NCBI GenBank assembly: GCA_963827685.1
Contig: CAWHBU010000003.1
Span: forward strand, 352,001 to 416,000
Reading direction: 5' to 3'
DNA length: 64,000 nucleotides
Source: an uncultured delta proteobacterium
GTDB lineage: Bacteria > Desulfobacterota > BSN033 > UBA1163
Both the position numbers and the translations under genes were made by a program. The notes beneath the pieces were generated by a model. The model did not search any database. It was not told the DNA's origin and was given only the letters and a program-made list of their open reading frames with translations. Shown here one piece after another: positions 572 to 13,200 of this stretch. How positions within the stretch are numbered: the stretch's first letter is position 1; each line of letters opens with the position of its first letter.

Positions 572-1507
572 TCAGGTTGACTCCCCTTCCTTTACTTGGT
601 CAACACACTTTTGGAGGGCCTTGACGAGCTGAGATCGCATCTCTTCGTTTGAATGACTGGGTTTAAAACCGAGATCTCTTTCTGCCTTTTCCCAGCTTAA
701 ATCCCAGGCCTCGTTTAAAAAGGCAGGTCCCTGCCATTCATTGGATGGTATCAGCTGGATGGAGGAACTTGATTCTGTAAGACGCACAATCATTGCCCCG
801 ATCTCTTCCCACGTTAATAAAAGACTGCCTACATTGTAGATCTGGCCAGAGGGCCCAGGTTTTGTGATGGCTGACATCATGGCACTTCCCAAATCGGCCA
901 TGGTAACGAAAGTTCCCCCTGCACCATGAACCATTTCCAGAGGCTGGTGTTTTAACGACTTCTTTATCAAATCCCGTAAATGGCGCCCGCCAATATTGTC
1001 ACCGAAAGCCCACCAGAAACGGAAGATTGTCGCAGAAAGGCCTCGCTCTCTGCTGTAAAACTTGCAGAGCTCTTCTGCCGTGAACTTGCCTAACGCATAA
1101 AGAGGTTTACGTGCCTCTCCGAGAAGGCAGGGATGGGTCTCAGTGACCGGGTGCAGGGCAGCTCGGCCATAAACGGTTGCTGTGCTCGTGTAAACAAGGT
1201 GACGCACTCCTGCTGATGAAGCAGCTTCCAAGAGATGAAGATGACCCTCGATGTCCTCTTCAAAAATTGTATTCGGTTCATCAGCAAAACTCCAGGCCAA
1301 ATTTACGATCGCGTCAATCCCTCGGACCATTTCGCTGACGAGTGCCCCATCCGTTAAATTCCCCTGAAAATAGGGAACGGCAAGTTCCTCCATCTCTCTG
1401 GTTTTGGTGGCTTTGTCCAACACCACGACTTCATGACCACGATTGGAAAAATCTTTTATCAGATGTTTCCCAACTTCGCCTGCACCACCGACAATCAGAA
1501 CCTTCAT
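572..1507 (-). CDS. NAD-dependent epimerase/dehydratase (extended SDR)
   Basis: N-terminal GGAGEVG Rossmann motif and YALGK (YxxxK); SD AGAGGGG upstream. Confidence 0.85.
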   Translation of the reverse strand: MKVLIVGGAGEVGKHLIKDFSNRGHEVVVLDKATKTREMEELAVPYFQGNLTDGALVSEMVRGIDAIVNLAWSFADEPNTIFEEDIEGHLHLLEAASSAGVRHLVYTSTATVYGRAALHPVTETHPCLLGEARKPLYALGKFTAEELCKFYSRERGLSATIFRFWWAFGDNIGGRHLRDLIKKSLKHQPLEMVHGAGGTFVTMADLGSAMMSAITKPGPSGQIYNVGSLLLTWEEIGAMIVRLTESSSSIQLIPSNEWQGPAFLNEAWDLSWEKAERDLGFKPSHSNEEMRSQLVKALQKCVDQVKEGEST

Positions 1508-1527
1508 CTTCTTCCCCTCTTGATCAC

Positions 1528-1575
1528 AAAAAGAGGGGATGGGGAGCGGAATATTCTCCGCCCCTTTCCCCTCTT
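1528..1575 (-). terminator. Intrinsic terminator-like hairpin between oxlT and the epimerase gene
   Basis: Minus strand AAGAGGGGAAAGGGGCGGAGAATATTCCGCTCCCCATCCCCTCTT-TTT: GC-rich stem followed by a short U tract. Confidence 0.55.
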
Positions 1576-1680
1576 CAACTTACATAATCATTTTCTCTCA
1601 TTCTGAACAGAAGGTAGTTCTACCCTCGTATACGCTCCTGCCGAATATCGATGTCCTCTGCACCAGGAAATTTTTCCGCT

Positions 1681-3006
1681 TCAAGCTCCCTTTGGAACTT
1701 CCTTTGCAATTCTGCTTCTGATCACAGGCCTTAAGACGAAGAAGGCAAGGAGCGCAGCCATGGCGTCGAATAGGGCCGTGATGTAATAAGGAACAACGAA
1801 CGACCCAGCGAAGAACGCTGCCATCAGAGCGGCGCCATATCCTGCCAGAATGGAAGACACTCCTTTAGCGGTGTATAACATGCCGTAGTTGGCGGTGGCA
1901 TTTTTGGGTCCGAATACGTCACCGGTGATGGCAGAGAACAGTGCGTATATTTCGCCCCATGAAAGGAAGACGAAGGGCAAGACGAGGACGAACAATATCG
2001 GGCTACCATGGATTTGAGTCATCAGAAAGATGAGGAACGCCTCTACCGCAAAGGCAAGGGTCATCGTATATTCCCTGCCCAGTTTGTCAGAGATTGAACC
2101 CCACATAATCCTGGAGAAGGCGTTCGTGACCCCGGCCAGCGTAGCCGTAAAGGGAACGATTGCAAAACCCCACACTTTCGTATCGAATACATTGAGAGAC
2201 TTGGCAATCTGGGATAAATTTCCTGTGGTCATCAGGCCTCCCGTGGCGACAAAAAGGAACATGATGTACAAGAGATAAAACTCAGGCCTCGTCAGCGTTT
2301 GAGACCAGGTATAGTTCACCTTTGATTGAGCAACGGCCTTGGTCACCAGTTTTGAGCGCTGTTCCCATCCAGGAGGCGCCCATCCCGCAGGAGGATGACG
2401 CAGTATCAAGGCCATGATGAAAGCGATGATGCCCTGGGCGACCCCCCATACAGCCATTGCGCCGGCCCACCCCATACTGCTTATCGTCCCCGCAATGGGT
2501 ATGATGGTTAATGCTGCTCCGCCGCCAAATCCTGCGGCAGTTAGGCCGGCTGCCAATCCCCTTCTATCAGGGAACCATTTAACAGCATTCGCTACCGTTG
2601 AAATATAGATGATTCCTGCCCCGGTCCCGGCAATGAGGCCGTAATAGATGTAAAGTTCAAAAACAGACTTAGCGACTGTTCCTCCGAGTAGCCATCCAGC
2701 AAGAATGGCAATGGAGCCTAACATCATGAGCTTGCGGATACCGAACCTATCGACGAAGTATCCTGCTACCGGCACAGGCCATGTTTCAAACAGAATGAAC
2801 ATTGAAAATATGGCCGCTATTTTAGCGTAGGGCACCCCTGTGAATTGTTGCTTCATCCCTGGCGTAAAGAGGGTGAACGAATATTGATAATTCGATATGA
2901 CGATCATCGCGATGACACCAGCGAATAGTTGGACCCACCGATTACCAGCGAGTGAACCGTAGGTTTGTTTGGCAATGTCGACTTGAGTTGTGGTTGTGTC
3001 AGGCAT
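1681..3006 (-). CDS. oxlT: Oxalate:formate antiporter (OFA family MFS)
   Basis: About 12 hydrophobic segments; motifs 'NRWVQL', 'SNYQYSFTLF', 'KWFPDRRGLAAG', 'NYGMLYTAKG'; adjacent to oxalate oxidoreductase genes. Confidence 0.85.
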   Translation of the reverse strand: MPDTTTTQVDIAKQTYGSLAGNRWVQLFAGVIAMIVISNYQYSFTLFTPGMKQQFTGVPYAKIAAIFSMFILFETWPVPVAGYFVDRFGIRKLMMLGSIAILAGWLLGGTVAKSVFELYIYYGLIAGTGAGIIYISTVANAVKWFPDRRGLAAGLTAAGFGGGAALTIIPIAGTISSMGWAGAMAVWGVAQGIIAFIMALILRHPPAGWAPPGWEQRSKLVTKAVAQSKVNYTWSQTLTRPEFYLLYIMFLFVATGGLMTTGNLSQIAKSLNVFDTKVWGFAIVPFTATLAGVTNAFSRIMWGSISDKLGREYTMTLAFAVEAFLIFLMTQIHGSPILFVLVLPFVFLSWGEIYALFSAITGDVFGPKNATANYGMLYTAKGVSSILAGYGAALMAAFFAGSFVVPYYITALFDAMAALLAFFVLRPVIRSRIAKEVPKGA

Positions 3007-3053
3007 AGTCCTCCTCCTTTCTCAAAATGCCTAGGTTAGGGCTAAACGAACTC

Positions 3054-3089
3054 GGTTCAGAGTATTCCGCCAGCGGAATACTCTGAACC
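3054..3089. other. Perfect 17-bp inverted repeat between the beta-subunit gene and oxlT
   Basis: GGTTCAGAGTATTCCGC-CA-GCGGAATACTCTGAACC. Confidence 0.8.
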
Positions 3090-3103
3090 CGAATGGCAGA
3101 AAA

Positions 3104-5328
<2,225 letters not shown>

Positions 5329-5344
5329 GATTTTTCCTCCTTCA

Positions 5345-5674
5345 TTAGAAAGGTTTTTCAAGACGAACAACCCCGTCCTCAAAGTCAAGCTCTGGAACAG
5401 CACTAAGGGCATCCGCCGGACATTCGTGGATGCAGATCTGACAGCCTTTGCAAAACTTCCAGTTCCATTCCATCTTGTCTTCTTTTTCATTGTAGGACCA
5501 GCAGGAATCTGGACAGGCAATGTAACAAGTAAAACAACGGGTGCACTTCTCATGGTCAATCACCGGACGAACGATCCGCCAGTTTGAAGTGATAAAGAGT
5601 TCCTGCTGCCTCACTGGAGCAGGTGTGATCGCTCCGAAGGGAACTTCTCTATCTTTTGGGACTTTTATCGCCAT
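5345..5674 (-). CDS. OFOR delta subunit (2x[4Fe-4S] ferredoxin-like) of oxalate oxidoreductase
   Basis: CTRCFTCYIACP and CKGCQICIHECP; 'NWRIVRPVID' and 'VPELDF' resemble the OOR ferredoxin domain. Confidence 0.88.
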   Translation of the reverse strand: MAIKVPKDREVPFGAITPAPVRQQELFITSNWRIVRPVIDHEKCTRCFTCYIACPDSCWSYNEKEDKMEWNWKFCKGCQICIHECPADALSAVPELDFEDGVVRLEKPF

Positions 5675-5721
5675 AATCTTCTCCTTTCTCTATGCTTTCT
5701 TTAAATTCTTCTTTTCTTCCA

Positions 5722-5752
5722 CATTCTGCATTCCTCATTCCGCATTCGGCAT
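5722..5752. repeat. 7-nt periodic tandem array (CATTCNN)x4
   Basis: cattctg cattcct cattccg cattcgg cat, immediately after the gamma-subunit stop. Confidence 0.7.
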
Positions 5753-6390
5753 CAGCCTCCCCAGAAGTACTCTGAACGGGGTTTACGAAATTTTTGCATT
5801 TTCACTTCATTAAAACCGCGTTCCATCGCCGCGACGTTGGTAATGATTTTTGCAATATTCTCTTTTTTCGCCATCCCCGTCACCTTGGCCATTGCCCCGA
5901 GCAGGGGTGCGGCAATGCCGGCTCCAATTCCTGCCGTGTCCACCCCTCCTTCTGAACCGGAGAAGTCAACCGTCTTTATCCCGGAGATTCCATCTGCATC
6001 CACTGTGGCAATAGCGCCTAATATATCCGCATTGGGGATAAATTTAAGCATATAATCGATCGGCCGGCTCGTATTAATAATCAAGAGGCCGCCTTCAGGC
6101 ATCCCTTTGAGCACATTGATCCCCTTAACAATGGTGGGTTCAACGATCACCACCACATCAGGGTGAGCGTTCGTATAGAGATATTTCATCTCGATCTCTT
6201 CATCACTGATTCGCGCGTATTTCCGGGTTGTAACGAGCACACGGTCGGGCAGGTCTTCATAATTGTCAAAGGCCTGGACAAATCTGCCCTCCATCTTTGC
6301 TGCCTGAGCAAAGGCATTGGCCACATCGCGGGCCTCCTTATCCATGACCACTCCTCGTGTCCAAACTGTGATTTCAGTTACTTTAGCCAT
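5752..6390 (-). CDS. OFOR gamma subunit (domain III) of oxalate oxidoreductase
   Basis: Start MAKVTEITVWTRG after SD AAGGAGG; 'NYEDLPDR' and 'GIGAGIAAP' resemble the N-terminal part of the Moorella OOR delta chain. Confidence 0.85.
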   Translation of the reverse strand: MAKVTEITVWTRGVVMDKEARDVANAFAQAAKMEGRFVQAFDNYEDLPDRVLVTTRKYARISDEEIEMKYLYTNAHPDVVVIVEPTIVKGINVLKGMPEGGLLIINTSRPIDYMLKFIPNADILGAIATVDADGISGIKTVDFSGSEGGVDTAGIGAGIAAPLLGAMAKVTGMAKKENIAKIITNVAAMERGFNEVKMQKFRKPRSEYFWGG

Positions 6391-6455
6391 AAATAGATAC
6401 CTCCTTAAAGCAATGTTGGGCAATCAAACTGATCCATGAAATTAAACAATCGATA

Positions 6456-7193
6456 TCAGGAATGAGATTTCTCCGCCTGAAACCTATGAGCTTCCACACC
6501 TCCTTTCTTTTTCTTGAACAATACATCCTCCACCTTCTTTAGATGCCGGCGCATCGCCTGCCGAGCGCCTGTACCATTGCCATTCTTAATAGCCAACAGG
6601 ATCTCGCGATGACCCTGAAGGGATTTTTGTTTTCTCTCCTCGGTTTGAAGGTAATTTTCACGAGTCTTGCTAAGGAGGTCCAGAAGGGCAAGAAGAAGAC
6701 GCTCCAAAATCCTGTTTCGCGACATCCGGGCCAAACAGTGATGAAAATCGGAATCCGTTCGAATCGGGTTCATACCCTGGGCGACTTCTTTTTTTTGTTC
6801 CTCAAGGATCTCCTCGAGCTCAACGATTTCCTCAGGGGTTGCATTTTCTGATGCAAGTTGGGCCACTTCGGGTTCGATCATTTTGCGCAGAGAAAAGATG
6901 TCGATCAGATCATCCTTCTCATGAAAGAGGGAAGTGGCTAAAGGTTGTACCAGGGCTTCTTCATTAGAAGCGATCACGTAAGTTCCATCTCCCTGTCGTC
7001 TCTGAACAAGGTTCATTGCTTCAAGATAAAAAGTGGCCTCCCTTACAGAGGCGCGGGATACTTTGAAGGTATCGGCTAATTCTCTTTCAGTCGGAAGCTG
7101 GTCACCTTGCTTGAATTTCCCTCTTTGGATAAGATGATGGATTTGTCCTACGATATCCTCGTAGACTCGCTTTTTTTTAACCGCCTTCAACAT
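6456..7193 (-). CDS. FadR/GntR family transcriptional regulator
   Basis: wHTH 'LPTERELADTFKVSRASVREA' plus FCD domain 'DSDFHHCLA...HREILLAI'. Confidence 0.92.
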   Translation of the reverse strand: MLKAVKKKRVYEDIVGQIHHLIQRGKFKQGDQLPTERELADTFKVSRASVREATFYLEAMNLVQRRQGDGTYVIASNEEALVQPLATSLFHEKDDLIDIFSLRKMIEPEVAQLASENATPEEIVELEEILEEQKKEVAQGMNPIRTDSDFHHCLARMSRNRILERLLLALLDLLSKTRENYLQTEERKQKSLQGHREILLAIKNGNGTGARQAMRRHLKKVEDVLFKKKKGGVEAHRFQAEKSHS

Positions 7194-9322
7194 GGGGACA
7201 CCCCCTCCTTTTCCTGAACTTCTTTGAGTGCCTCTTCAAGATGAGAAGCAGTGACTAAAAGCTTTTTTGATTTGCTCTTCCCCGAGTCGTGGATCAATTC
7301 TCCGATGGCAAGCATGGTTGCCCTCCTCGCAATGAAGGCGATATGAGAACCCGTCATTCCATCTGTGCGTTTGGCCAACTCTGCCAGGTTTACATTGTCG
7401 GCCAAAGGCCTCTCTCTGGTGTGAACCCGAAAGATCTCTAACCGCTCTTCCTCGTCGGGGAAGGGAAAGTTAAGAATATAGTCAAGCCGTCCGGCCCGCG
7501 TTAAGGCGGGGTCGAGCAGATCTTCACGATTCGTCGCTCCGAGCACAAGGACCTGAGAAAGATCACTCAGGTTATCCAGCTCATTAAAAAACTGACTGGC
7601 CATGCGTTCGACCGCCCCGCCTTCATTTCCATAGCCACGGGTGGTCACCAGGGCATCGATTTCATCAAAAAACAGGATGCAGGGGGCCGACTGTTTCGCT
7701 TTTTTAAAGATCTGATGCAGGGCTTTTTCTGATTCTCCAAGCCACTTTGAGAAAAGGATGGGACCGCTGATGGAAATGAAATTCAGGCCCGTTTCTCCCG
7801 CCAAAGCCTTTGCCATAAGCGTCTTCCCAGTGCCCGAAGGTCCGGAGAAAAGAACCCCTCTCGGAGGGAGTACTTTACCTTCGTCAAAAAGCTCCGGAAA
7901 TTTGTGGGGCCAATCTACAATGGAGATGAGGGTTTCTTTAATCCTCTTCAATCCGCCGATATGGTGCCACTGGACCTTAGACCTCTCCGTATAAAATTCA
8001 CGCGTTGCTGTGGGTTCAATCTCACGGAGGGCCGCCAAAAAGTCCTCCATCGTGATCTCCAGATGATCCGGGTTGACGAGCATGGCATCGAGATGATTGT
8101 CGCTCTCGAGAGAAAGATATCTCCTTAAAGCCACCATTCCCGCCTCTTTGCATAAAGCCTCTAAATCCGCTCCGACAAAGGCATGGGTAATCTGGGCAAG
8201 GCGTTCCAAATCGACATCAGAGGCCAGGGGCATACGGCGGCTGTGAATCCTAAGGATGGCGTGGCGGCCTTCGGCGTTCGGAACGGAGAGGGCCATCTCA
8301 CGGTCAAAGCGACCTGGTCGTCTGAGAGCAGGGTCGATCATCTCCGGGATGTTGGTGGCCCCAATGACAATCACCTGTCCACGGGAGACCATCCCATCCA
8401 TCAAGGCCAGGAGCTGGGCAACCACTCTTTTCTCGACATCTCCTAGGACCTCTGCGCGTTTTGGGGCGATAGCATCGATTTCGTCGATAAAGATGATGCT
8501 GGGGGCATTGCGGGTTGCATCTTCAAAGATCTCCCTTAGGCGGGCTTCACTTTCACCATAAAATTTATGGATGATTTCCGGTCCGTTCACCCGAATGAAA
8601 TGGAGTTTTGTCTCGCTGGCGATGGCGCGGGCAATGAGGGTTTTCCCTGTCCCAGGAGGACCATAGAGGAGTACCCCCTTGGGTGCTTCGACTCCCAGTT
8701 TTTCAAAAACCTCCACATAGCGCAAGGGGAGCTCGACCATCTCGCGAATAAGCTTTAATTCTTTTTCAAGCCCACCGACGTCCTCGTAAGAAACATGAGA
8801 AGGTGCCTCGATGGAAATATCTGGTCTTTTTATCAGGAATTTGGTCTTCAGGTTAATCAAAACTCCCCCTGATGGAGAAGTCGCTTCGACAAGAAAAAAA
8901 CGGTCCTTCCCTGTTAAAAAGGGGACATTGATTTTATCCCCAATCAGTATAGGTAACCCCTGGAGGATTTTGGGAAACTGCTCCAGCTCGCTTCCTTCTG
9001 GGACGACGTTTGTTAAATCGAGAGGGGTAATGAGGACCGTTGTGGCGATTTTATAGGGGATTTTTTTTATTCTTACAATTTCCCCCAAGTTTACCTCGGC
9101 ATTGCTGCGAGTGATCCCGTCGATCTGAATTATTTTTTTTCCATAATACTCTGGGAAGGTTCCGGTGATCCTGGCGACTGTTTTTTTCTCTCCACTCATC
9201 TCGATCAGATCGCCGAGGACACCTCCTAACGCCTTAATATCCTCTGGATCGAGGCGCGCCAATCCCTTTCCGACATCTTCAGCCAAGGTTTCAGCCACCT
9301 TTAATTCAATAAAACCGCCCAC
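7187..9322 (-). CDS. CDC48/p97/VAT-family AAA+ ATPase (N-domain plus two AAA modules)
   Basis: N-domain 'DVGKGLARLDP...IDGITRSNA'; Walker A GPPGTGKT and GPSGTGKT; Walker B FIDEID and FFDEID; SRH 'DPALRRPGRFD'; GTG start after GAGGGAG inferred. Confidence 0.9.
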   Translation of the reverse strand: MGGFIELKVAETLAEDVGKGLARLDPEDIKALGGVLGDLIEMSGEKKTVARITGTFPEYYGKKIIQIDGITRSNAEVNLGEIVRIKKIPYKIATTVLITPLDLTNVVPEGSELEQFPKILQGLPILIGDKINVPFLTGKDRFFLVEATSPSGGVLINLKTKFLIKRPDISIEAPSHVSYEDVGGLEKELKLIREMVELPLRYVEVFEKLGVEAPKGVLLYGPPGTGKTLIARAIASETKLHFIRVNGPEIIHKFYGESEARLREIFEDATRNAPSIIFIDEIDAIAPKRAEVLGDVEKRVVAQLLALMDGMVSRGQVIVIGATNIPEMIDPALRRPGRFDREMALSVPNAEGRHAILRIHSRRMPLASDVDLERLAQITHAFVGADLEALCKEAGMVALRRYLSLESDNHLDAMLVNPDHLEITMEDFLAALREIEPTATREFYTERSKVQWHHIGGLKRIKETLISIVDWPHKFPELFDEGKVLPPRGVLFSGPSGTGKTLMAKALAGETGLNFISISGPILFSKWLGESEKALHQIFKKAKQSAPCILFFDEIDALVTTRGYGNEGGAVERMASQFFNELDNLSDLSQVLVLGATNREDLLDPALTRAGRLDYILNFPFPDEEERLEIFRVHTRERPLADNVNLAELAKRTDGMTGSHIAFIARRATMLAIGELIHDSGKSKSKKLLVTASHLEEALKEVQEKEGVSPC

Positions 9323-9347
9323 AGAAAATGCTTCTCCCTCGATGAGC

Positions 9348-9405
9348 AAATTGGTATAAAGATCAGACCAATTTCATATTAGAATATTTCTGCCCATTCT
9401 GTCAA
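9348..9405 (-). promoter_or_regulatory. sigma70 promoter with overlapping FadR-type operator for the oxalate operon
   Basis: Minus strand TTGACA-N18-TAATAT followed directly by the palindrome AAATTGGT-N11-ACCAATTT (9348-9374), which has FadR/PdhR/LldR-like TTGGT..ACCAA arms. Confidence 0.65.
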
Positions 9406-9547
9406 GACATTTTGCGTTATGCCAGATTATCGTGTGCTTAAGAGGCGAAGGGGTAAAAATGAAAGACGGCGTCGGGGCGAGCGGGATACGACCGGAATTC
9501 GCATTTCTTGACTAAGATTTTCTGCGGCGAAGAAACGGGGATGTTTT

Positions 9548-10777
9548 TCATTCATAGCGAAGAGCTTCGATGGGGTTGAGCAGAGAGGCTTTCCGTGCCG
9601 GATAGAATCCAAAAAATACGCCTACCGACCCAGAAAAGAGAAAAGCCAAAAGGACAGCTTCGACTGAAAAGAGGGTCGGCCATTGGGTAAAACTGGATAA
9701 GATGAGGGTCCCTGCCACTCCAATCCCAATTCCCACTGTTCCCCCAATCAGACTGAGAACCAAAGATTCAATGAGGAATTGAAGGAGGATATCCCGTCCC
9801 TTTGCACCGACGGCGATTCGAATGCCAATCTCTCTTGTTCTCTCCGTGACGGAGACAAGCATAATGTTCATAATCCCGATACCCCCGACAATCAAAGAGA
9901 TGGAAGCAATGGCACCCAGGAGAAGGGACATAACATTCGCTGATTGCTCAGCGGTCGACATAATCTCTGTGAGATTCCGCACCGTAAAGTCATTATCCTG
10001 CTTCGGTTGAATATGATGCCTCTGTCGAAGAAGATCATTAATTTGATTCTCCACATCCTTCATCACCTCCGGTTGCGTCGCTTGCACCATGATCACTCTC
10101 ACCATCCCCGGGAATTGCATTCCAAAGAGTTTTTTTTGGGCCGCGGTCAAGGGGACGATGATCGTATCGTCCTGATCCTGCCCCTGAGTCGATTGTCCCT
10201 TCGGAGCAAGTACTCCGATCACGGTGAAAGGAACCATCTTAATACGAATGACTTGGCCAGTCGGATCGATCCCTCCAAAGAGATTATCTACCACGGTCTG
10301 TCCAAGAAGACAGACCTTTGTCGCTCCGTCTATATCCTGTTGTGTAAATGGGCGACCCGAAGAAAGGGACCAGTCTCTGATTTCGAGGGCCTCGGGGGTT
10401 GTTCCGTTAACAATGGTCGACCAGTTCTGGTTCCCGAAGACTACCTGTGCTCCCCCGCCGAGGTAGGGCGCTACATACTTGACCGCTGGAATCTCGTTTA
10501 GGATTGCTTTGGCATCATCCACTCTTAATGTTGGAACTGTTCCTGATCCGAACCGAAGTCCGCCGCTTGTTGAGCTCCCTGAGAGGACGATTAGGAGGTT
10601 CGATCCCATACTGGCAATCTGCTCGGCGATTCGCTTCTTTGCCCCTGAGCCCACAGCAATCATAGCAATCACCGCACCCACACCGATAATGATCCCCAAC
10701 ATGGTCAGGGCCGAGCGCATCTTATTGACCGTGAGCGCCCTTAGGGCAATCCGAAGGCTTGCGAGAAGACGTGTCAT
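9548..10777 (-). CDS. MacB/FtsX-family ABC transporter permease
   Basis: 'RSALTMLGIIIGVGAVIAM' and 'GGIGIMNIMLVSVTERTREIGIR' signatures. Confidence 0.92.
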   Translation of the reverse strand: MTRLLASLRIALRALTVNKMRSALTMLGIIIGVGAVIAMIAVGSGAKKRIAEQIASMGSNLLIVLSGSSTSGGLRFGSGTVPTLRVDDAKAILNEIPAVKYVAPYLGGGAQVVFGNQNWSTIVNGTTPEALEIRDWSLSSGRPFTQQDIDGATKVCLLGQTVVDNLFGGIDPTGQVIRIKMVPFTVIGVLAPKGQSTQGQDQDDTIIVPLTAAQKKLFGMQFPGMVRVIMVQATQPEVMKDVENQINDLLRQRHHIQPKQDNDFTVRNLTEIMSTAEQSANVMSLLLGAIASISLIVGGIGIMNIMLVSVTERTREIGIRIAVGAKGRDILLQFLIESLVLSLIGGTVGIGIGVAGTLILSSFTQWPTLFSVEAVLLAFLFSGSVGVFFGFYPARKASLLNPIEALRYE

Positions 10778-11499
10778 TTCCCTCCCATCCTCCCTCCTGC
10801 AATGGTAGGCGCCGAATTCTTGCGATCATCAACGATTTTTCCGTCCCTGAAGAGAATATCCCTTTTGGCAAAGGAGGCAATATCCGGCTCGTGAGTGATC
10901 ATGATGATGGTAATTCCCATCTCTCGATTGAGGCGCTGAAAGATACCCATGATCTCTTCACTTGTCTTGGAATCAAGATTGCCCGTGGGTTCATCCGCTA
11001 AGAGGATGGAAGGCTGGTTGACTAAGGCCCGGGCGATGGCTACCCGTTGCTGTTCACCTCCAGAAAGTTGGCTGGGATGATGATGCTCCCTTCCCTTTAA
11101 GCCCACCTCAGAAAGAGCTTTTTGTGCCATCTCCTTCCTTTTGGAAGTTTGAGTTCCTGCGTAGGTCAGAGGCAGCTCGACATTCTCTAAGGCCGAAGTC
11201 CTAGACAAAAGGTTAAACCCCTGAAAGACGAAGCCGATCTTTCGATTCCGAATCTCCGCCAACTCATCCCTCGAAAGGTGTTCTCCATTAATGCCTTCCA
11301 AAAGATATTGCCCGCTCGTCGGTCGATCCAGGAAACCTATAATATTCATGAAGGTTGACTTCCCAGAGCCTGAAGCTCCCATGATGGCCACAAATTCACC
11401 TCGTTCAACCAACAGAGAAACACTCCGAAGGGCTTGAACTTCCACCTCGCCCAAGCTATAAACCTTCACCAAATCTTGAACCTGAATTAATGAACCCAT
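10774..11499 (-). CDS. MacB/LolD-type ABC ATP-binding protein
   Basis: [28 protein letters not shown]. Confidence 0.93.
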
Positions 11500-11502
11500 A
11501 TT

Positions 11503-11680
11503 TTAAATCCAAATTTCAAAATCCCTGCCTTCGCCGAAGCGGCTTCGCGCAGGCAGGCAAATGTCAAATCAATGTCAAAGTTCAAATTCTGGAATTTTTT
11601 GCATTTTGATTTTGGATTTGATTTGACATTGATTCACCTTTGGTTCATCACTTCGTGCGAGCTTTGACATTTGACATTTT
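11503..11680. repeat. Periodic inverted-repeat element (about 7-nt TCAAATG/CATTTGA arms) with a nested GC hairpin
   Basis: Left arm caaatgt/caaagtt/caaatt units; right arm gatttg/gacattt units; CCTGCCT...AGGCAGG insert at 11524-11557. Confidence 0.7.
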
Positions 11681-11691
11681 CTCCACGGTTC

Positions 11692-13200
11692 TTATCTCCC
11701 TATTCCGCGCATGAGAGGTGGAGCGCCGGCTTGGCTCTGAGTTTTCTTGCCCGAAGTCTCTTCAACAATCACTTCTCCACCTTCTTTGAGATCTCCAGAC
11801 ATCACCTCACTGAAAGTACCGTCGGTAATTCCAAGGATGATAGAGACTGGCGTTGATTTTCCTTCTGAAGATAGGACCCACACCCTTCCTGGTTTTCCCT
11901 GCTCCGCCTGAGAAGACTCAGATAGCTCCTTCAGCTTCTGTTTCTGTTCGTCTGTGAGAATCCCTCCGATTTTCTGTCGGATGAGACCTTGGATCCGGCC
12001 CCTCGCCTCCTCTGGCTTCATCTTTTGGCTAACCTCCTGAAATTCCTGCCTCGATGACCTCAGAACCATTTCAAGTTTCGACTGCTGATCCGGTGTCAGG
12101 TTTAATTCTTTTGTCAATCGCTCGATCAAGAGACGGCCCATCGATGCAGAGCTTTCGCTCCTTTTTTGAGGAATTCCCCCCTGCTTTGCAGATTCCGGTT
12201 GAAACCTGAGAGCAGCGTTGGGTATTTTCAAAACCCCTTCTCTATGGGCAATCATAACGGAGAGGTTGGCGGTCATACCCGGCATCAGCTTTAAGTCTTT
12301 ATTGTCCACCTGGATCACAACATCATAAGTTACCACATTCTGTACGATAATGGGAGCAATGCGAACCTCAGAAACTTTTCCACGAAAAATTCTTCCAGGA
12401 TAAGCATCAACGGTAAAGGTCGCATCCTGCCCCACTGTAATACGTCCAACGTCTGCTTCACTCACATTCGTATCAACCTGCATCTTGGTCAGGTCTTTGG
12501 CGATGGTAAAAATAGTTGGGGCCTGGAGGCTGGCTGCCACGGTTTGGCCAACATCGACATTCCTCGAAACGACAGTCCCATTGACCGGAGAACGAATAGT
12601 GGCATATCTCAGGTTGGTCTCCGCCAGTTCCAAAGCGGCCTTCGCCTGCCCCACCTGAGCCTTTGAAGATTCCACTTGGGCTTTGGCCACCTCTTTCTGA
12701 GCTACAGCGGTATCATAATTTACCTGGGCCGTATCGAGGGTAGCTTGAGCAATGACCTGCCTTTCCAAAAGCGGCTTGTTTCGATCGAGATTTCTCTTTG
12801 CATCCAGGACAGCCACTTCAGCCTTCACAAGATTGGCCTGAGCATTCTCAAGATTGGCCTGGGCGGTCAGCACATTGGCCTTTGCCTGATCGACCTGAGC
12901 CTGAAAAATCGCAGGGTCTATCTGGGCGATCACCTGTCCCTCTCTTACCCGGGAATTAAAATCAGCATAAAGAGCTTTGATCGTCCCTGAAACCTGGCTC
13001 CCCACTAAAACATTGATGACCGGATTGATCGTCCCGGTAGCTGTCACGATCAAGTCGACCTCTCCCCTCTCGACCTTTACCAAACGAAATTTTTGGTTCG
13101 ATCCATTCTGGCCGGTCAACTGATAGATTGAAAATCCTCCTACAAAAATGATAAGGACGATCCCAATCGCTATCAAATATTTCTTCGTTCGGTTTCCCAT
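11692..13200 (-). CDS. MacA-like efflux periplasmic adaptor (membrane fusion protein)
   Basis: N-terminal TM anchor, 'VGSQVSG', coiled-coil hairpin, 'IRSPVNGTVVSRNVDVGQTVAAS'. Confidence 0.9.
   Translation of the reverse strand: MGNRTKKYLIAIGIVLIIFVGGFSIYQLTGQNGSNQKFRLVKVERGEVDLIVTATGTINPVINVLVGSQVSGTIKALYADFNSRVREGQVIAQIDPAIFQAQVDQAKANVLTAQANLENAQANLVKAEVAVLDAKRNLDRNKPLLERQVIAQATLDTAQVNYDTAVAQKEVAKAQVESSKAQVGQAKAALELAETNLRYATIRSPVNGTVVSRNVDVGQTVAASLQAPTIFTIAKDLTKMQVDTNVSEADVGRITVGQDATFTVDAYPGRIFRGKVSEVRIAPIIVQNVVTYDVVIQVDNKDLKLMPGMTANLSVMIAHREGVLKIPNAALRFQPESAKQGGIPQKRSESSASMGRLLIERLTKELNLTPDQQSKLEMVLRSSRQEFQEVSQKMKPEEARGRIQGLIRQKIGGILTDEQKQKLKELSESSQAEQGKPGRVWVLSSEGKSTPVSIILGITDGTFSEVMSGDLKEGGEVIVEETSGKKTQSQAGAPPLMRGIGR

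Follow-up and report, generated by a model that had tools for sequence, protein, structure and literature searches.

Cdc48, p97 and VAT are known as general segregases that feed proteasomes. The Rubisco activases (Rca, CbbX, CbbQ/O) are AAA+ hexamers encoded beside their client, and their ATP-driven remodelling restores or establishes its activity. The subject of this report is an ATPase gene of the Cdc48/VAT family that leads the genes of oxalate oxidoreductase (OOR) in a 64,000-nucleotide (nt) stretch of DNA from an uncultured delta proteobacterium (contig CAWHBU010000003.1 of assembly GCA_963827685.1, positions 352,001 to 416,000), called the window below. The pairing of this ATPase with OOR is near-obligate, and the protein may be an accessory factor dedicated to that enzyme.

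The closest solved structure is that of Thermoplasma VAT (5g4g, E 5.4e-247), followed by p97 at ~1e-170. The window's protein shares with VAT and archaeal Cdc48 (5g4g, 5g4f, 5vc7) the N-D1-D2 architecture and aromatic pore loops in both rings. Unlike them it is bacterial, it lacks the hydrophobic-Tyr-X (HbYX) tail, it occurs in a genome without a 20S proteasome, and its gene is bound to a single metabolic operon. Cpa, an actinobacterial Cdc48-like ATPase, was described by Ziemski et al. 2018 (PMC6017811). In that paper, the Cdc48 homologues of other bacteria are sporadic, grouped with archaeal proteins and given no function, and they do not cluster with Cpa. Cpa and the window's ATPase (a predicted double ring) are both bacterial double-ring ATPases of the Cdc48 family without a classical HbYX motif. 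The setting differs: the window's genome has no 20S proteasome and the gene context is OOR.

The Rubisco activases would share the proposed working principle by analogy, but they are single-ring proteins of other AAA+ clades (classic Rca/CbbX, MoxR), whereas the window's protein is a two-ring Cdc48 type with a double-psi-barrel N domain. The presumed client is also different, a thiamine pyrophosphate (TPP)/iron-sulfur (Fe-S) oxidoreductase, and activase activity is here a proposal. The OOR of Moorella thermoacetica (5C4I, 5EXD, 5EXE) is the same enzyme as that of the window, and a locus whose alpha subunit is ~97% identical to the Moorella chain also has GntR and Cdc48 genes upstream. The window differs in that the 315-amino-acid (aa) "delta" subunit of Moorella is split into two open reading frames (ORFs), and the regulator gene separates Cdc48 from OOR instead of preceding Cdc48. 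Judged by its listings, a literature search that did not extend to the primary OOR papers and their supplements found no paper describing a Cdc48-OOR pairing.

Linkage of the Cdc48 gene to oxalate oxidoreductase

The gene series is compact and lies entirely on the minus strand, in the order Cdc48, GntR regulator, four OOR ORFs and a transporter of the major facilitator superfamily (MFS):

7187..9322, minus strand: Cdc48/VAT-family AAA+ ATPase, 711 aa, N-D1-D2 (Pfam, NCBIfam and PDB matches)
6456..7193, minus strand: GntR-family regulator with FCD domain (FadR subfamily), 245 aa (GntR 70.9 bits, FCD 107.9 bits)
5752..6390, minus strand: OOR gamma-like subunit (domain III), 212 aa (NF045790 243.9, cut-off 230; 5c4i_B, E 4.4e-60)
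5345..5674, minus strand: OOR ferredoxin-like subunit, 2x[4Fe-4S], 109 aa (separate ORF between gamma-like and alpha)
4135..5328, minus strand: OOR alpha subunit, 397 aa (5c4i_A, E 2.7e-153; NF045791 581.1, cut-off 500)
3104..4105, minus strand: OOR beta subunit (TPP-binding), 333 aa, with Pro/Lys-rich C-terminal tail (5c4i_C, E 1.9e-151)
1681..3006, minus strand: MFS transporter of the oxalate/formate antiporter family, 441 aa (TIGR04259 370.9, cut-off 335)

By its subunit matches the enzyme downstream of Cdc48 is OOR. The 5C4I chains are by far the best solved matches for the alpha, beta and gamma-like subunits, and the beta subunit scores 566.5 against NF045792, slightly below the cut-off of 590. 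The earlier picture of the enzyme had to be corrected: it has four ORFs here, including the 109-aa ORF at 5345-5674. The gamma-like ORF matches residues 12-209, and the ferredoxin-like ORF residues 227-316, of the Moorella subunit of 315 aa that PDB and NCBIfam name "delta". Alpha truly starts at ATG 5328 (MAQEKML); the mechanical 474-aa ORF, with its TTG start at 5559, makes alpha ~77 residues too long and runs, in another frame, over part of the ferredoxin ORF.

Loci were collected with OOR alpha as the seed, which carries no bias toward Cdc48, from 401 genomes of the window's phylum and 401 genomes of a Bacillota-type phylum. OOR-type alpha was found in 12 of the first 401, the next oxidoreductase falling to 43% identity, and Cdc48 adjoins the OOR genes in all 12; in one of them (G366) the pairing spans a contig break. 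The second set had OOR-type alpha in 30 of 401 genomes, with Cdc48 directly upstream in 28/28 evaluable loci and the other two cut by contig ends. Thus Cdc48 was present at 40/40 evaluable OOR loci in two phyla, and the linkage that the original prediction had offered for checking is conserved. Like the Rubisco activases, the ATPase is encoded beside its presumed client and co-inherited with it, and the OOR-adjacent proteins form a single clade.

A second scan was seeded with Cdc48 and drew on 496 relatives, one genome per species. Among the best 80 of these, 59 have OOR genes adjoining and 19 are without OOR. The 59 OOR-carrying loci come from Thermodesulfobacteriota, Nitrospirota, Bacillota, Methylomirabilota and Deferrimicrobiota. 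The remaining two, L034 and L032, group with the OOR-linked loci but have no OOR on the contig. The L034 contig stops after the regulator gene, and OOR starts another contig of the same genome.

When the distinct OOR loci were pooled (a pool that is partly Cdc48-seeded), Cdc48 was present at 84/84, the GntR regulator at 75/79 and the MFS transporter at 39/80. The ATPase is thus a steadier neighbour of OOR than either the regulator or the transporter. In loci with enough flank the regulator lies directly behind Cdc48 in 50/79, upstream of Cdc48 in 24 and downstream of OOR in one; it was not found in the other 4 of the 79. The original prediction had suggested an AAA ATPase and a GntR gene beside Moorella OOR. 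This fits one of the alpha-seeded Bacillota-type loci, whose alpha is ~97% identical to PDB 5C4I_A and which reads GntR - Cdc48 - 163 nt - OOR.

Architecture and clades of the ATPase

The ORF ends at 7187 and could start at TTG 9349 or GTG 9322. The GTG is favoured: GAGGGAG lies 8-9 nt before it, and homologues align from residue 1-5 of the 711-aa form. The full N-D1-D2 ATPase read from the sequence alone was borne out by family searches. Pfam finds CDC48_N (71.5 bits, cut-off 35.1), CDC48_2 (22.6, barely reaching its cut-off of 22.4), two AAA modules and two AAA_lid_3 domains, and the NCBIfam model TIGR01243, "CDC48 family AAA ATPase", is matched with 821.7 bits (cut-off 802.65). The N domain covers about residues 1-185, and the CDC48_N and CDC48_2 scores indicate a double-psi barrel and beta-clam. 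D1 contains a Walker A motif at 221 (GPPGTGKT), a Walker B motif at 276 (IIFIDE) and the pore loop KFYG at 253-256; the equivalents in D2 are GPSGTGKT at 494, ILFFDE at 549 and KWLG at 526-529. In each ring the Walker motifs (A and B), the arginine fingers and the aromatic pore loop are either invariant across the clade or at least 90% conserved there, and PALRRPGRFDRE is conserved. A hexameric double ring is predicted because of the similarity to VAT at ~E-247.

The C-terminus reads ...KEGVSPC and, as first noticed, has no HbYX tail; the tail is unconserved within the clade. A terminal Cys is frequent because the ATGnTGA overlap with the regulator start codon dictates it, and it was rejected as a motif. 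In the window the Cdc48 gene, with its stop codon TGA at 7187-7189, and the regulator gene, with its ATG at 7193, overlap by 7 nt, exactly as the original prediction had it.

The OOR-adjacent Cdc48 proteins fall on one side of a branch with SH-like approximate likelihood ratio test (SH-aLRT) support of 100 in both a 78-row and a 106-row tree, and only L032 and L034 are nested among them in both. The fragments L022, L037, L046 and L052 were dropped from the smaller tree, and rows >88% alike were merged in the larger one; both were built from quick searches and without archaeal rooting. The OOR-linked clade that a phylogeny was expected to reveal is thus present. Only six alignment positions distinguish this clade from its relatives, in a comparison whose reference group included three members of the OOR clade (L004, L032 and L034) in error.

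Within the window's phylum, 47 of the 401 genomes carry 51 Cdc48 genes: the 12 OOR partners, two clade-like fragments, the second copy of the window's genome and 36 others. Near these 36 loci, no oxidoreductase alpha or gamma gene was found (0/36). The view that CDC48 proteins are mainly archaeal and eukaryotic, stated at the outset, understates the bacteria, as these 47 genomes include at least four clades.

The second Cdc48 of the window's genome (G000:C3:674392-676524; L081:8393-10525) is 50% identical to the window's protein, and its gene is clustered with those for GvpL/F-DnaJ, ArsA, two Hsp20 proteins and a GvpN-like AAA protein. All 19 non-OOR loci among the best 80 carry orthologues of this copy, with Hsp20 directly upstream in 18. 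This second clade (L055-L080, L130-L149) belongs to a gas-vesicle-like cluster in which Hsp20 lies immediately upstream and which also contains a 206-aa ORF, a CheY-like receiver, a GvpN-like AAA_5 gene, GvpL/F and ArsA. Its hosts belong to Chloroflexota, Planctomycetota (Brocadiaceae), Spirochaetota and Thermodesulfobacteriota. Hsp20 adjoins Cdc48 in 20 of the 36 other loci of the window's phylum. A literature search on gas vesicles and Cdc48 gave, by titles, only haloarchaeal and unrelated papers. Two further clades of the phylum, with seven loci each (L150-L156 and L158-L164), are 43-49% identical to the window's protein; OOR, oxidoreductase and gas-vesicle-cluster genes were searched for near these loci and none were nearby.

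Possible function of the ATPase

Judged from sequence and gene order, the chances are about even that the ATPase is a hexameric double-ring unfoldase of the Cdc48/VAT type serving OOR as an accessory factor of its own. Moorella OOR in the PDB has alpha, beta and delta chains and no ATPase chain, and the locus with the near-identical alpha still encodes Cdc48, so the ATPase would be accessory rather than a stoichiometric subunit. From this accessory status and an evolution locked to OOR, we infer a client-dedicated remodeller that would assemble or reactivate the enzyme, with OOR as its client and remodelling as the outcome.

In the proposed mechanism the ATPase would be made together with OOR from a promoter that is probably under the control of the GntR/FCD repressor. 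Its N domain would recognize OOR; the two rings, D1 and D2, would then use ATP hydrolysis to draw part of an OOR subunit through their aromatic pore loops and so open the complex or unfold it in part. This might serve to load TPP and Fe-S cofactors during OOR assembly; alternatively, and slightly favoured, OOR that carries a dead-end thiamine adduct or a damaged cofactor, and is blocked by it, might be cleared and then reloaded. The working mode would resemble that of a Rubisco activase, not that of a proteasome cap. Reactivation would have a chemical rationale because OOR is reportedly suicide-inactivated by pyruvate. A more specific version, which must be called rather unlikely, makes the ATPase the first enzyme-specific "activase" of the classical Cdc48 clade that rescues OOR by ejecting dead-end TPP from the partly unfolded TPP-binding subunit. 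OOR has no coenzyme A site for clearing wrong acyl-thiamine adducts, and in that version fresh TPP would bind after ejection.

Three approaches addressed which OOR subunit would be contacted. Complex prediction from a 44-row alignment per subunit pair gave 0.00, 0.38 and 0.00 (mark 0.32) for the N domain (1-185) with the gamma-like, ferredoxin-like and alpha subunits, respectively; it was run without controls and counts neither way. Mirror-tree comparison of N, D1 and D2 with the OOR subunits gave raw r 0.76-0.93 and partial r 0.36-0.51 from pairs that are non-independent; the partial correlations singled out no partner and were rejected for naming the client subunit. A search of terminal tails found ...GVVRLEKPF at the end of the ferredoxin subunit wherever that subunit is separate, a conserved YW(I/V/L)(G/P)FE at the C-terminus of alpha, and variable, Pro/Lys-rich tails on beta. 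The ferredoxin tail is missing from the fused Moorella-type subunit, and no conclusion on recognition tags was drawn.

Several points weigh against a dedicated role in OOR assembly or reactivation. Native Moorella OOR is already active when purified, and the other 2-oxoacid oxidoreductases are not known to need a comparable factor, so that the need for an ATPase is unexplained. The six clade-distinguishing positions offer no obvious client-specific surface. Translational coupling in the window joins the ATPase gene to the regulator gene and to none of the OOR genes. L032 (4027-5817), a member of the OOR-linked Cdc48 clade, is followed by GntR and then a gamma-glutamyltranspeptidase gene, with no OOR there; its binned genome has OOR on another contig that begins inside a second GntR copy, the DNA being just 80% identical, and the arrangement could be a rearrangement, a strain mix or a chimeric contig. 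Two other genomes, G038 and G039, carry clade-like Cdc48 fragments at contig ends, and OOR-type alpha was not found in either of these fragmented assemblies. Finally, whatever points to contact with OOR or an effect on it is gene linkage. Thus the genomic side of the original interpretation (linkage and clade) and its proteasome independence have gained support, and the assembly or reactivation function is still suggested by linkage.

The first alternative to such a remodeller is turnover or quality control, in which the ATPase would unfold damaged or surplus OOR, or other proteins during growth on oxalate, for a cellular protease, resulting in removal, not repair. Processive unfolding of the VAT type, with aromatic pore loops in each ring, would suit this task, and related archaeal and actinobacterial Cdc48 proteins feed proteasomes according to PMC6017811. 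A protease candidate also exists in the genome: the only match to PF00227, ~130 bp from a weak AAA match, is read as one half of a putative HslV/HslU-type pair. The same search, with its lone match so read, indicates that a 20S proteasome is absent from the window's genome. Together with the missing HbYX tail this supports the proteasome independence that had been proposed, and neither feature of a proteasome-docking Cdc48 (an HbYX tail and a 20S partner in the genome) was found. The absence of an HbYX or other conserved C-terminal docking motif weakens turnover as an explanation, as does the outcome of the neighbour search at related loci, in which the conserved genes looked for included no protease gene. 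Furthermore, an ATPase with general duties would not be expected to show near-obligate linkage to a single enzyme, specific to one clade. Turnover is considered unlikely.

A second alternative is that the ATPase acts on the GntR/FCD repressor instead of the enzyme, stripping or unfolding it to switch the operon. The 7-nt overlap of the two genes in the window and the 50 loci with the regulator directly behind Cdc48 are consistent with this, as are L032 and the G039 fragment, which keep the Cdc48-GntR pair with no OOR gene on the contig. FCD regulators are, however, normally ligand-responsive without an ATPase. The regulator is also less constant than Cdc48 at OOR loci and its position varies; its identity to the window's regulator is only 24-29% in most Bacillota-type loci, while Cdc48 there is 45-54% identical. 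At L097 (G293:C188) a GntR gene 49% identical to the window's precedes the gene for an oxidoreductase alpha that is 43% identical to OOR alpha, and the locus has no Cdc48 gene; this oxidoreductase may be a sister enzyme acting on a different substrate. Since the regulator is variable and sometimes missing, repressor switching is weakened and appears quite unlikely. Hitch-hiking, by which the ATPase would be co-inherited with a mobile oxalate cassette without any function tied to OOR, is very improbable: Cdc48 and OOR-subunit pairwise distances do correlate (r ~0.9, 44 loci) and the cassette is patchy in several phyla, as expected of a jointly transferred unit, but drift would remove a useless gene, whereas this 2.1-kb gene is intact with invariant catalytic residues and 45-93% identity across phyla, and it stays while gene order shifts, other regulators take the place of this one and the transporter is present at some loci and absent from others.

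If the ATPase is indeed a remodeller dedicated to OOR, a bacterial branch of Cdc48 in proteasome-free genomes would be tied to one metabolic enzyme, which would widen the known roles of this machine, and the "sporadic" bacterial Cdc48 genes would gain a testable function. It would also suggest a hidden maturation or repair need of OOR that could decide recombinant production or engineering for oxalate removal or CO2 chemistry. Under the activase version, natural oxidation of oxalate by anaerobes would rely on an unfoldase for repair, and recombinant OOR would require the ATPase for its production or for staying active. Bacterial Cdc48 proteins might then generally be client-dedicated remodellers, with a sister clade tied to the Hsp20/GvpN/GvpL-F clusters.

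Promoter, operator and neighbouring genes

The ATPase gene lies directly behind promoter- and operator-like elements, as first described. Three elements were located:

9376..9405, minus strand: sigma-70-type promoter-like site TTGACA-18-TAATAT (consensus match only, 10/12)
9350..9372, no strand assigned: perfect palindrome ATTGGT-N11-ACCAAT, between the -10 hexamer and the Cdc48 ribosome-binding site
3054..3089, minus strand: perfect 16-bp stem-loop between the OOR beta and transporter genes

The promoter-like site (9405..9376) precedes the Cdc48 gene and is the top one of 11 such sites within 1400-9700. The palindrome might be a FadR-type operator bound by the GntR/FCD regulator, for which NCBIfam gives only NanR/LldR/PdhR-like matches, all below threshold. 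Taken alone the palindrome is no rarer than chance, since 95 of 100 shuffles match at <=2 mismatches; 11 of 52 related upstream regions retain its core TGGTCTGA(T/C)CTT..ACCA at -40 to -50. The gaps after GntR, in order toward the transporter, are 65, 77, 16, 29 and 97 nt. The stem-loop is the sole strong one in the gene series and could be an attenuator or a transcript-stabilising element.

In two metatranscriptome runs 5-7% of sampled words were present, and the contigs placed come from relatives ~90% identical, so that they cannot demonstrate co-transcription in the window's organism. These contigs span OOR genes and short pieces of Cdc48, and one of 198 nt crosses the Cdc48/GntR junction; none from the two runs joins GntR to the gamma-like gene.

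A gene of the NAD-dependent epimerase/dehydratase family follows the transporter gene (window 572-1507) and recurs downstream of OOR, with homologues of 55-73% identity in many related loci. Upstream, on the same strand (window 9548-13200), are genes for a MacB-type permease, an ATP-binding cassette (ABC) ATPase and an HlyD-family protein, which were not counted in the operon. The MacB gene lies near the operon in several close relatives, and its place and orientation vary.

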